IMG/VR virus record: IMGVR_UViG_3300032330_000639
Location: 1 to 28,962 of that record
DNA: 28,962 nucleotides
Strand: one strand, 5' to 3'
From: a virus
Lineage: Duplodnaviria; Caudoviricetes
Part shown: positions 15,279 through 25,792 of the stretch, piece after piece
Position numbering within the stretch: the stretch's first letter is position 1
Layout of the letters: each line of letters opens with the position of its first letter
The notes under the pieces: model-generated
What the model was told of the DNA's origin: nothing
What the model saw: only the letters and a program-made list of their open reading frames with translations
Databases searched by the model: none
Program-made: the position numbers and the translations under genes

Positions 15279-15359
15279 GCCCCGCCTCCTTAATCAGAGG
15301 GCACAGGCTCAAGACCTGAGCGGGGCACAAGGTAAGGCGGGAGACACCCGCAGACCTTA
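15279..15359 (+). ncRNA. Structured RNA element, copy 1 (three-way junction plus hairpin)
   Basis: Stems GCCCCGC/GCGGGGC, CTC/GAG and CAGG-CTCAAGA-CCTG, then AAGGT-AAG-GCGGG-AGACA-CCCGC-AG-ACCTT. Covaries with copy 2. Confidence 0.7.
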
Positions 15360-15380
15360 CAAAGAAAGACGGGGGAAATA

Positions 15381-15791: not shown

Positions 15792-15869
15792 GCCCTAACC
15801 CTTGACGGGGGCGCGGTGAGCAAGACACCATAGGGCACGGGGTAAGGTGGAAGATTTCCACAAACCTTA
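15792..15869 (+). ncRNA. Structured RNA element, copy 2
   Basis: Stems GCCCTA/TAGGGC, CCC/GGG and GGTG-AGCAAGA-CACC, then GGGGT-AAG-GTGGA-AGATT-TCCAC-AA-ACCTT. Confidence 0.7.
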
Positions 15870-15896
15870 AGACCATTTTGACGGGAGAAAATTAAA

Positions 15897-17098: not shown

Positions 17099-17120
17099 AC
17101 CAATAAAGACAGGAGAAATA

Positions 17121-17396: not shown

Positions 17397-17644
17397 TGTA
17401 TCAAGGCGAACTATCAGAACCAACAACACCAACAAAATGTTGTAATGCTCGTGCAATTTGGGACGATTGTGAAAAGCACTGGACAGAGGAAGGTAGCGGT
17501 TGTTATGCTACTTGTTGTGAGAAATGTGGCGTCCAAATAGAAACAGATTGTCAGGATAATGTATATTATCTTAGCGAACTTATATCATCAGCAAAAAAAT
17601 TAGTTGAATTGACAGGAGGAAAAAATGATAATGTATCAAATTAG
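17396..17644 (+). CDS. Cys-rich hypothetical protein
   Basis: TAATG coupling; 8 Cys in 82 aa. Confidence 0.6.
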   Translation: MYQGELSEPTTPTKCCNARAIWDDCEKHWTEEGSGCYATCCEKCGVQIETDCQDNVYYLSELISSAKKLVELTGGKNDNVSN

Positions 17645-23951: not shown

Positions 23952-23970
23952 TTAAAACCCCTGTCTTAAG

Positions 23971-24018
23971 TTGGAAGAGGGATAACTAATCCCCTTATGA
24001 AAATTACCCCTCTACCAA
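23971..24018 (-). promoter_or_regulatory. Long intergenic hairpin
   Basis: TTGGTAGAGGGGTAATT / AGTTATCCCTCTTCCAA: 16 of 17 positions pair, with G-U pairs possible only on the minus strand. Confidence 0.6.
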
Positions 24019-24437: not shown

Positions 24438-25034
24438 TTATTTATCCTTCGTGAATTGGCAGTGTTCTGTAAGTCCACAGTAACTGCACGATTGTAGGTT
24501 CGGTAGAAATATACCAGCCTTGCGTGCCTTATCAAAGCCTGACACAAAATATTCTAGTGTGTCTAATGTATATCTACTAAGGTCAATCATTTCCCCTGTC
24601 CCTGACTCACGAGACATCCAGTAATTGCCTAGATTGACTTTAACGCCAAGCATCTCTTCTACACCGACTTTATAAAAGCCTAGTTGTAAATCAGATATTG
24701 GCTTACGAGAGGATGTTTTCAAGTCGACAATCACAAGTTGTCCGTTAACTTCAAATATCCTATCAATGAACATCTTTACTGGAACATCAGCAATGATTGG
24801 ATTTAATTCCAACTCAATAGCCCGAACACCTTGAGGGGTAGTCCAGATTTTCCAGTCTTTATTATTCTTGCGCCAAGAGATGTAGTTGTCTACCCACTTG
24901 GAACCCTGTGTATTCCACCAAACGGCATCTTCTTTATTTGGATTCGCAATCGTTGAACGACCAGCAACACGAGCAATTGAGAAATCTAATCCTTCAGTTT
25001 CTTTAGCCCAAGCCTTTTCCCACAGTTCATTCAT
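24438..25034 (-). CDS. Cas4/RecB-like exonuclease, catalytic C-terminal part
   Basis: 'IELEL', 'FIDRIF', 'IVDLKT', 'QLGFY', C-x2-C-x5-C. Confidence 0.85.
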   Translation of the reverse strand: MNELWEKAWAKETEGLDFSIARVAGRSTIANPNKEDAVWWNTQGSKWVDNYISWRKNNKDWKIWTTPQGVRAIELELNPIIADVPVKMFIDRIFEVNGQLVIVDLKTSSRKPISDLQLGFYKVGVEEMLGVKVNLGNYWMSRESGTGEMIDLSRYTLDTLEYFVSGFDKARKAGIFLPNLQSCSYCGLTEHCQFTKDK

Positions 25035-25215
25035 TATCTAGGTCATACAATTCTGTTGCATAGTGAAAGGCTCTGCCACCAGCAGACCATACAGATGGTT
25101 CTTCTTCTAACTTCAGTAATCTTCCTAAGTAATACTGATAACCACAAGTCAGATAAGTTGTAAATGCTGAATAAGATATATGTGCAGGTAATTCATATCC
25201 ATCAAGTTTAAGCAT
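25027..25215 (-). CDS. Cas4/RecB-like exonuclease, N-terminal part
   Basis: 'ISYSAFTTYLTCGYQYYL' and 'GRAFH' are the usual N-terminal motifs of this family. Confidence 0.8.
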   Translation of the reverse strand: MLKLDGYELPAHISYSAFTTYLTCGYQYYLGRLLKLEEEPSVWSAGGRAFHYATELYDLDNE

Positions 25216-25235
25216 AGTTTCTCCTGTCTATTGAA

Positions 25236-25291
25236 TTAGATAACCCTCCTGCGGAGGACAGGAGAGTACTCAACACAAGAGAGTTATCTAA
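25236..25291 (-). ncRNA. 18-bp hairpin with an anti-RBS loop (candidate sRNA or RNA switch)
   Basis: TTAGATAACTCTCTTGTG / CGCAGGAGGGTTATCTAA: 18 of 18 pairs, 3 of them G-U. The 20-nt loop contains TCTCCTGTC. Confidence 0.7.
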
Positions 25292-25446
25292 ATTTATATT
25301 TAGTTGTATATATGTTGCCCTGTCGGGCAACTAGATTTAGGAAAGCCCCCCCACCCCCCATAAAAAAATTATGGTTGGTAGAGAAGACATAACCCTGTCG
25401 GTGTAACCGTCATTGAGGTTTCGCCCCCACCATTGCTGGTAGATGT

Positions 25447-25486
25447 ATCTTAACACACAACACTGACACAGAAGGTAGGCAGACAC
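25447..25486 (-). promoter_or_regulatory. Putative promoter of the replication module
   Basis: Extended -10 TGTTAAGAT just downstream of the terminator; two GTGTC/GACAC pentamers upstream. Confidence 0.5.
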
Positions 25487-25512
25487 GCTAATTAAAAACG
25501 TGATAATGAACG

Positions 25513-25560
25513 ACAAAAGACCCCCTTCCCAGTATCTCTACTAGGTCGGGGGTTATTTGT
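25513..25560 (-). terminator. Intrinsic terminator after the lysis genes
   Basis: ACCCCC-GA-CCTAGTA-GAGA-TACTGGG-AA-GGGGGT followed by CTTTTGT. Confidence 0.7.
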
Positions 25561-25600
25561 GTCTCTAAGGGGCGTTGTAGGCCCTATTAGGGGTACTTAA

Positions 25601-25792
25601 TTACTTACTGTTGACACCAAATTCTGTTGCTGATGGGTCCAATGCCTTTAGGACTGGTCCTGCTACAGCAGCGACACCTGCTAATGCTAGTGTCTTTAGG
25701 TCAGTTGTGCCAGCAAGATACAGAGCAATCACTGATGCTACTGCTGCACGAACATAGGTAACTACGATTGCTTTTAGTTTATCTTTATTCAT
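25601..25792 (-). CDS. Putative holin
   Basis: 63 aa with two hydrophobic segments, directly after the endolysin; 'GPVLKALDP...FG' tail. Confidence 0.7.
   Translation of the reverse strand: MNKDKLKAIVVTYVRAAVASVIALYLAGTTDLKTLALAGVAAVAGPVLKALDPSATEFGVNSK

Follow-up and report, generated by a model that had tools for sequence, protein, structure and literature searches.

The window analyzed in this study is the whole 28,962-nucleotide (29-kb) stretch of the virus record IMGVR_UViG_3300032330_000639. This record encodes a terminase, WhiB, a sigma-70-like protein, a split primase, a DnaB-like helicase, and a CHAP amidase. The first gene of the replication operon is a 62-aa ORF (25027..25215, minus strand) for the N-terminal part of a split PD-(D/E)XK nuclease (PF12705 positions 1-48). 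It overlaps a 198-aa ORF (24438..25034, minus strand) for the C-terminal part of this Cas4-like nuclease (PF12705 positions 83-247). The same pair of overlapping ORFs, spanning 24438-25215 in the window, was found in 76 of 77 relatives. No longer fused forms of the nuclease were found in a dedicated search, though in L045 it is fused (253 aa). The split nuclease could be assembled as a heterodimer or made by frameshifting. The nuclease of the window is 82% identical to that of phages E7 and F5 (OX376640 and OX376641), described as cultured, host-lysing Planktophila phages (PMC10202952).

Between the lysis genes on one side and the replication operon on the other lies a minus-strand hairpin (25236..25291), herein referred to as hairpin 1. 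It is also present in E7 and F5, and since these two cultured phages carry it, the model proposed below is testable. A terminator-like hairpin with a U tail follows the lysis genes (25514..25554, minus strand) and presumably separates late transcription from the replication leader. A candidate extended -10 promoter, TG-n-TAAGAT, lies at 25447..25455 on the minus strand. The promoter was read by eye, as was the TG-n-TAnnnT pattern upstream of hairpin 1 in 19 of 20 genomes, and the terminator-like hairpin was recognized by its fold; both are absent from the list produced by a sigma-70 and terminator scan, which performed at chance level. The segment at 25292-25335 is an AT-rich tract with a GNA/GNNA mini-hairpin; in most relatives it is about 70 nt long and almost pure A/T. 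This tract is a candidate replication origin. Genes are labeled here by position and strand rather than by timing: "early" refers to a cluster of small opposite-strand genes at 7-11 kb from hairpin 1, "middle" to the 6.5 kb downstream of the hairpin, and "late" to the remainder.

An earlier note, made from the letters of the DNA, described an uninterrupted 18-bp minus-strand stem with three G-U pairs. This stem, P1, is indeed unbroken and contains the three G-U pairs, with 25291-25274 paired to 25253-25236, and the folding z-score of the 72-mer is -4.3 for the minus strand versus -1.9 for the plus strand. The 20-nt loop reported in the same note is correct as a sequence stretch but not as a single loop. 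It comprises a UU bulge (25273-25272), a 3-bp helix P1b (GAG 25271-25269 with CUC 25256-25254, replaced by AAG/CUU in 2 of the 58 relatives that were aligned), and a terminal loop of 12 nt, UACUCUCCUGUC. On the 3' side of the terminal loop is the invariant seed CUCCUGUC (25257..25264, minus strand), complementary to GACAGGAG. As the note had claimed, this exact complement is the RBS of the next gene (25228-25221, minus strand), located 7 nt past the stem end and 5 nt ahead of the ATG at 25215.

For the analysis of conservation, 80 loci were picked by the nuclease protein and not by the hairpin. The exact core CTCCTGTCCT was found in 73 of these loci, and the remaining 7 are cut short, with too little upstream DNA. 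Hairpin 1 sits before whichever gene leads the operon, be it the 62-aa ORF or a small gene inserted ahead of it. The stem has a length of 16-19 bp in 68 of 78 distinct variants. Among the 58 variants that were aligned, 96.2% of cells are paired and two-sided changes occur at 16 of 18 pairs, so the stem covaries across relatives. None of 500 shuffles matches this result, a control to be read with the caveat that kin sequences may beat shuffles even without structure; slid registers pair at 45-51%. Given these slid registers and how many types of pair occur, the helix is secure despite the kinship caveat. On the evidence of sequence comparison, hairpin 1 is a real, conserved RNA structure.

The conserved inverted repeat could in principle act as DNA, through inverted copies of an operator-like site or through a cruciform by the AT-rich origin. 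The AT-rich tract with its GNA mini-hairpin does lie directly upstream in relatives. However, G-U pairs outnumber A-C pairs by 151 to 6, a count from a stem finder that favors G-U, and the same per-pair trend is seen in the 58-variant alignment. Moreover, the motif lies at Shine-Dalgarno spacing on the sense strand. We therefore regard a DNA-level element as extremely improbable.

Comparison with Rfam, which the earlier note had suggested, gave no credible match. For 24900-25700, with E values up to 10, only two weak eukaryotic matches were found (E 0.46 and 7), at the gathering score there was no match in the whole window, and 4 relatives gave none either. No description of hairpin 1 was found in the literature; the motifs are absent from 6 supplement files of PMC10690425, a check that lay outside files 1, 2, and 4, which perhaps hold an unnamed candidate. 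Among assembled metatranscriptome contigs from 8 of 24 listed runs, one covers 24511-25275 and another covers 25235-25418; ends, strand, and level of the transcripts are not readable from these contigs.

The relation between the loop and the adjacent RBS is also conserved. The linker from the stem to this RBS is 7-10 nt long in 71 of 76 variants. The RBS aligns ungapped in 76 of 78 variants, all of which depart from the loop complement by wobble-compatible changes only, and reads GACGGAGG in the other two. As a pairing potential, loop-RBS pairing is possible in 99.6% of alignment cells. The seed itself never varies: none of the 8 seed pairs shows two-sided change, and no relatives with an altered seed in the same scaffold were found by five pattern scans (12, 24, 67, 19, and 0 matches).

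The persistent pairing potential and the linker length both speak for an explanation in cis only. Here, the loop would fold onto the adjacent RBS as an H-type pseudoknot and limit or time the first replication gene, while the early RBSs would be alike through cassette homogenization or some other cause; cassette sequence is indeed common to the early genes. In such a fold the seed would stack directly on P1b, with a loop 1 of 4 nt. Stacking of this kind together with a short loop 1 is classic pseudoknot geometry. On the other hand, the linker must cross about 21 bp, an estimated 59 A, which requires fraying of the stem. The earlier note had called a cis pseudoknot unlikely on the basis of its linker. 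The linker is tight, but the dismissal was too firm, since fraying of A-U pairs at the stem base would by our estimate make the linker marginally long enough. Together with the comparisons described below, these points make the explanation in cis only unlikely.

The same note had offered a two-state switch. In such a switch, the hairpin would refold to a nested rod hiding the adjacent RBS. For the 111-mer of the window this rod is the minimum-energy fold (-31 kcal/mol), and the nested state costs 2 kcal or less in 9 of 76 variants. However, the median cost is +7.3 kcal/mol, the cost reaches 5 kcal or more in 52 of 76 variants, in 74 of 76 the hairpin is no more than 1 kcal above the minimum, and sequences for the rod arms are missing in several lineages. 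Such a switch is thus very improbable.

The motif GACRGGRG has 10 copies in the window versus 1.25 expected, and none of 100 shuffles reaches 10. Besides the adjacent RBS, five copies precede ORF starts, three do not, and one is the loop itself. The earlier note had likewise counted five other genes. Four of the five starts belong to the early cluster on the plus strand and are predicted targets of the loop: GACGGGGG before a 77-aa ORF (15368..15375), GACGGGAG before a 148-aa ORF (15880..15887), and GACAGGAG before ORFs of 91 aa (17108..17115) and 38 aa (17611..17618). The fifth, GACAGGGG (23958..23965, minus strand), precedes a 25-aa ORF upstream of the DnaB-like helicase. Tagged starts are confined to the opposite-strand cluster and two starts of the replication operon. 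Early genes are arranged in repeated cassettes (15290-15380 and 15800-15890, plus strand) consisting of a promoter-like stretch, a T-loop-like hairpin, GGGCAC, a short hairpin, and the tagged RBS. Type II hammerhead ribozymes scoring above the Rfam gathering score were found directly upstream of tagged early RBSs at L245:19262-19324, L248:18903-18967, and L249:1289-1353; Rfam detected none in the window.

Starts in the relatives were counted with a purpose-made gene caller that favors Shine-Dalgarno cores and has no preference for GAC. In 20 genomes, exact GACAGGAG precedes 85 of 305 early starts, 33 of 243 middle starts, and 1 of 598 late starts. For a larger set freed of duplicates, the corresponding numbers are 184 of 781, 142 of 1021, and 1 of 1141. 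The exact tag is present on only about one quarter of early starts, and the set of tagged genes varies from genome to genome. Seven early starts are tagged in E7 and six in F5, and none is tagged among the 17 early genes of G015, which has hairpin 1. The predicted duplex with the loop has an energy of -15.6 kcal/mol for the tag and about -9.3 kcal/mol for late-type or GAAAGGAG sites. At sites with one mismatch, position 3 changes only from C to T (6/6) and position 4 only from A to G (15/15). Overall, only 25 of 48 such sites are wobble-compatible, because the terminal positions vary freely. As another cause of the tag, a host 16S tail complementary to GACAGGAG was considered and rejected: among 185,579 genomes there were 5 matches, 2 of them at 16S ends and 0 in Nanopelagicales, with the host's own tail outside this count.

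In the 20 genomes, the flanks of GACAGGAG are not conserved and the tagged sites are followed by A-rich spacers. The tag could alternatively be read by a protein, namely a RegB-like nuclease, a translational repressor, or an activator, the hairpin being a separate processing or protein site or a shield of tagged sites. The spacers are in line with this explanation, T4 RegB being described as cutting GGAG of early RBSs within an A-rich consensus (PMC3014915). Additionally, the SAS motif of Cluster K mycobacteriophages, considered below, persists in phages where an anti-SAS loop was not found. However, with a protein reader neither the exact complement in an invariant loop nor the wobble-only variation at tag positions 3 and 4 would be expected, and we consider this explanation quite unlikely. 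A search for regB was negative in all 5 near-complete relatives, and its control likewise matched nowhere.

Four observations favor predicted pairing in trans over pairing in cis: a second hairpin, a sister clade, a distant lineage, and the ninth base of the loop. The last three come from one lineage each. Hairpin 2 (23971..24018, minus strand), located before the helicase unit, repeats the stem-linker-RBS layout of hairpin 1 and has a G-rich loop that is not anti-RBS. A strong hairpin was found ahead of an RBS of this type in 78 of 80 loci, with two-sided changes at 13 of 16 pairs (27 aligned). Nearness to an RBS thus does not imply pairing in cis, because hairpin 2 combines identical spacing with a non-complementary loop. 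The hairpin 2 loop is of the GGGGAAG type, and in several genomes further copies of the complement of this loop, CTTCCCC, lie at a distance of about 10-11 kb.

The sister clade, with nuclease identity of 55-68%, was reached through a 59%-identical representative and compared over 10 kb. None of the 35 loci that had sufficient upstream DNA contains the hairpin 1 loop (7 of 45 were dropped). In a matched window, the median number of tagged starts is 1 in this clade (n=12) versus 6 in hairpin carriers (n=19). The first replication gene appears to be leaderless in sister-clade loci L600-L631, where a -10 box precedes its ATG by 6-7 nt. This loss of the tag alongside the hairpin is left unexplained by pairing in cis only.

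In the distant lineage (L634-L636, 40% identity), a hairpin with another loop lies between the same type of promoter and the same first gene (L634:9740-9800). Over 13 bp, its loop is able to pair with the RBS of a class II glutamine amidotransferase gene that lies upstream (near L634:8770). The loop-target energies are -17.6 and -17.0 kcal/mol, equaled by 0 and 2 of 150 shuffled loops, and the differences in loop and target between loci are wobble-only. In contrast to a cis pseudoknot, this loop does not match its own adjacent RBS (-3.7 kcal/mol). The match was found post hoc and concerns a single clear target, on the same strand and about 1 kb upstream, and this hairpin is only a possible homologue of hairpin 1.

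The ninth base of the loop provides the last comparison. In the lineage with UCAC loops, where this base is C, the base after the early seed is G at 25 of 51 sites versus 9 of 138, in line with the expectation for a ninth pair, several of the sites being orthologous. Late starts of this lineage are unshifted, and none of its 10 adjacent RBSs has G. The signal is weak, however: for UACC loops the figure is 15 of 101, and when full 8-mers were compared in a stricter test, the p values were 0.12 (A) and 0.04 (G). Moreover, the ninth base is not the same in E7 and F5, yet both use GACAGGAG. Taken with the covarying stem, the invariant loop, and the early/middle-only motif, the co-absence in the sister clade and the changed loop with its changed, non-adjacent target in the distant lineage lend comparative support to the trans-acting anti-RBS regulon put forward in the earlier note.

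We consider it on balance probable that the loop of hairpin 1 pairs in trans with tagged RBSs, repressing translation of early genes from the time when transcription of the replication operon starts. In this model, a promoter about 90-150 nt upstream, placed by eye, would make the replication leader at middle times. In the predicted hairpin of this leader, the rigid stem would expose the 8-nt seed. By pairing over the Shine-Dalgarno site, the seed would keep 30S subunits from loading on tagged mRNAs, a mode of repression described for mycobacterial B11/6C. The opposite-strand cluster would be expressed early, and many of its genes would be switched off together through their common GACAGGAG. 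The GAC beyond the Shine-Dalgarno core would provide selectivity against late and host sites, and the two tagged replication-operon starts would be damped as well. The element could act inside the mRNA leader or as an excised small RNA; release of the latter from the 20-bp stem by RNase III is conceivable, though speculative. If pairing occurs in trans, the hairpin should lower output from GACAGGAG more than from CTAAGGAG. Repression of the first gene of its own operon is awkward for this model. Two cautions also apply: the shared promoter and leader cassettes of early genes could spread one RBS without selection for pairing, and both the untagged early starts of G015 and the lack of two-sided change in the seed count against the model.

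Temporal control in lytic phages is usually credited to transcription factors and nucleases. If the proposed mechanism is true, base pairing would join these means of control, with one RNA loop silencing a tagged class of genes. The mechanism would also provide a testable function for private phage RBS motifs, unexplained since the 2011 report of SAS. The phages with hairpin 1 are relatives of phages that infect a dominant group of freshwater bacteria.

Several known systems can be compared with hairpin 1. In P1/P7 c4 and P4 CI RNA, a phage RNA pairs by its loops with RBS-proximal sequence. These RNAs belong to temperate elements, where each controls the immunity or antirepressor operon that it comes from, and they are discrete RNAs processed from a precursor (RNase P). 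The analogy drawn with them in the earlier note is apt in logic and does not extend to family membership, as no Rfam match to c4 or CI was found for hairpin 1. In contrast to their targets in the same operon, the predicted targets of hairpin 1 are scattered over the opposite strand at distances of 7-11 kb.

The closest parallel for the tag is the SAS motif of Cluster K mycobacteriophages, reported as a phage-specific extended RBS on non-structural genes only, with one reverse copy away from starts (Pope et al., 2011, PMC3203893). In that report, SAS has no assigned function, and an RNA or protein partner is left possible. Both motifs are private, have RBS spacing, and belong to non-structural genes (here 184/781 early versus 1/1141 late starts). 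Unlike GACAGGAG, SAS is a 13-bp motif, GGGATAGGAGCCC, and its phages are temperate. Anti-SAS was found in 5 of 14 Cluster K genomes, all of them K1; coverage of the 9 others comprised the homologous region (7 genomes) or the right half (Pixie and TM4). Four of the five K1 phages, Anaya among them, have the reverse SAS as a terminal hairpin loop, and the fifth has the sequence in another predicted fold. The reverse SAS of the K1 phages (L258:29830-29910 in Anaya; also L261-L264) lies in a large structured non-coding region. The lone copy of Anaya is in the terminal loop of a long hairpin, in a region common to 165 records. Since anti-SAS was found in only 5 of 14 genomes, the parallel is incomplete, and it also shows that a tag may be retained where no loop is evident.

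Mycobacterial B11/6C is described as pairing its pyrimidine-rich loops with the RBSs of many mRNAs and repressing them without a chaperone (bioRxiv 10.1101/2022.10.27.514065). Hairpin 1 shares with it an apparently unpaired loop complementary to many RBSs, as judged from the predicted fold, the complementarity, and the enrichment of the tag. In contrast to 6C/B11, which is host-encoded and has two C-rich loops and generic G-tract targets, hairpin 1 has one loop and a private 8-nt tag on a phage gene class. With one loop instead of two and no match to Rfam 6C, it does not belong to this family. T4 RegB is described as inactivating early genes through an RBS motif, with S1 as a cofactor, while late genes escape (PMC3014915). 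RegB is a protein nuclease, whereas the reader predicted here is an RNA. By analogy, hairpin 1 would resemble 6C in chemistry and T4 RegB in purpose. A broader proposal, which we hold tentatively and at somewhat less than even confidence, is that the early-to-middle switch of lytic actinophages runs on an RNA address code. A whole class of genes would carry a private RBS tag, and one hairpin loop, produced along with the replication transcript, would read it. Such a code would correspond to T4 RegB with RNA as the agent, would have been retargeted from lineage to lineage, and would account for some of the Cluster K SAS puzzle.
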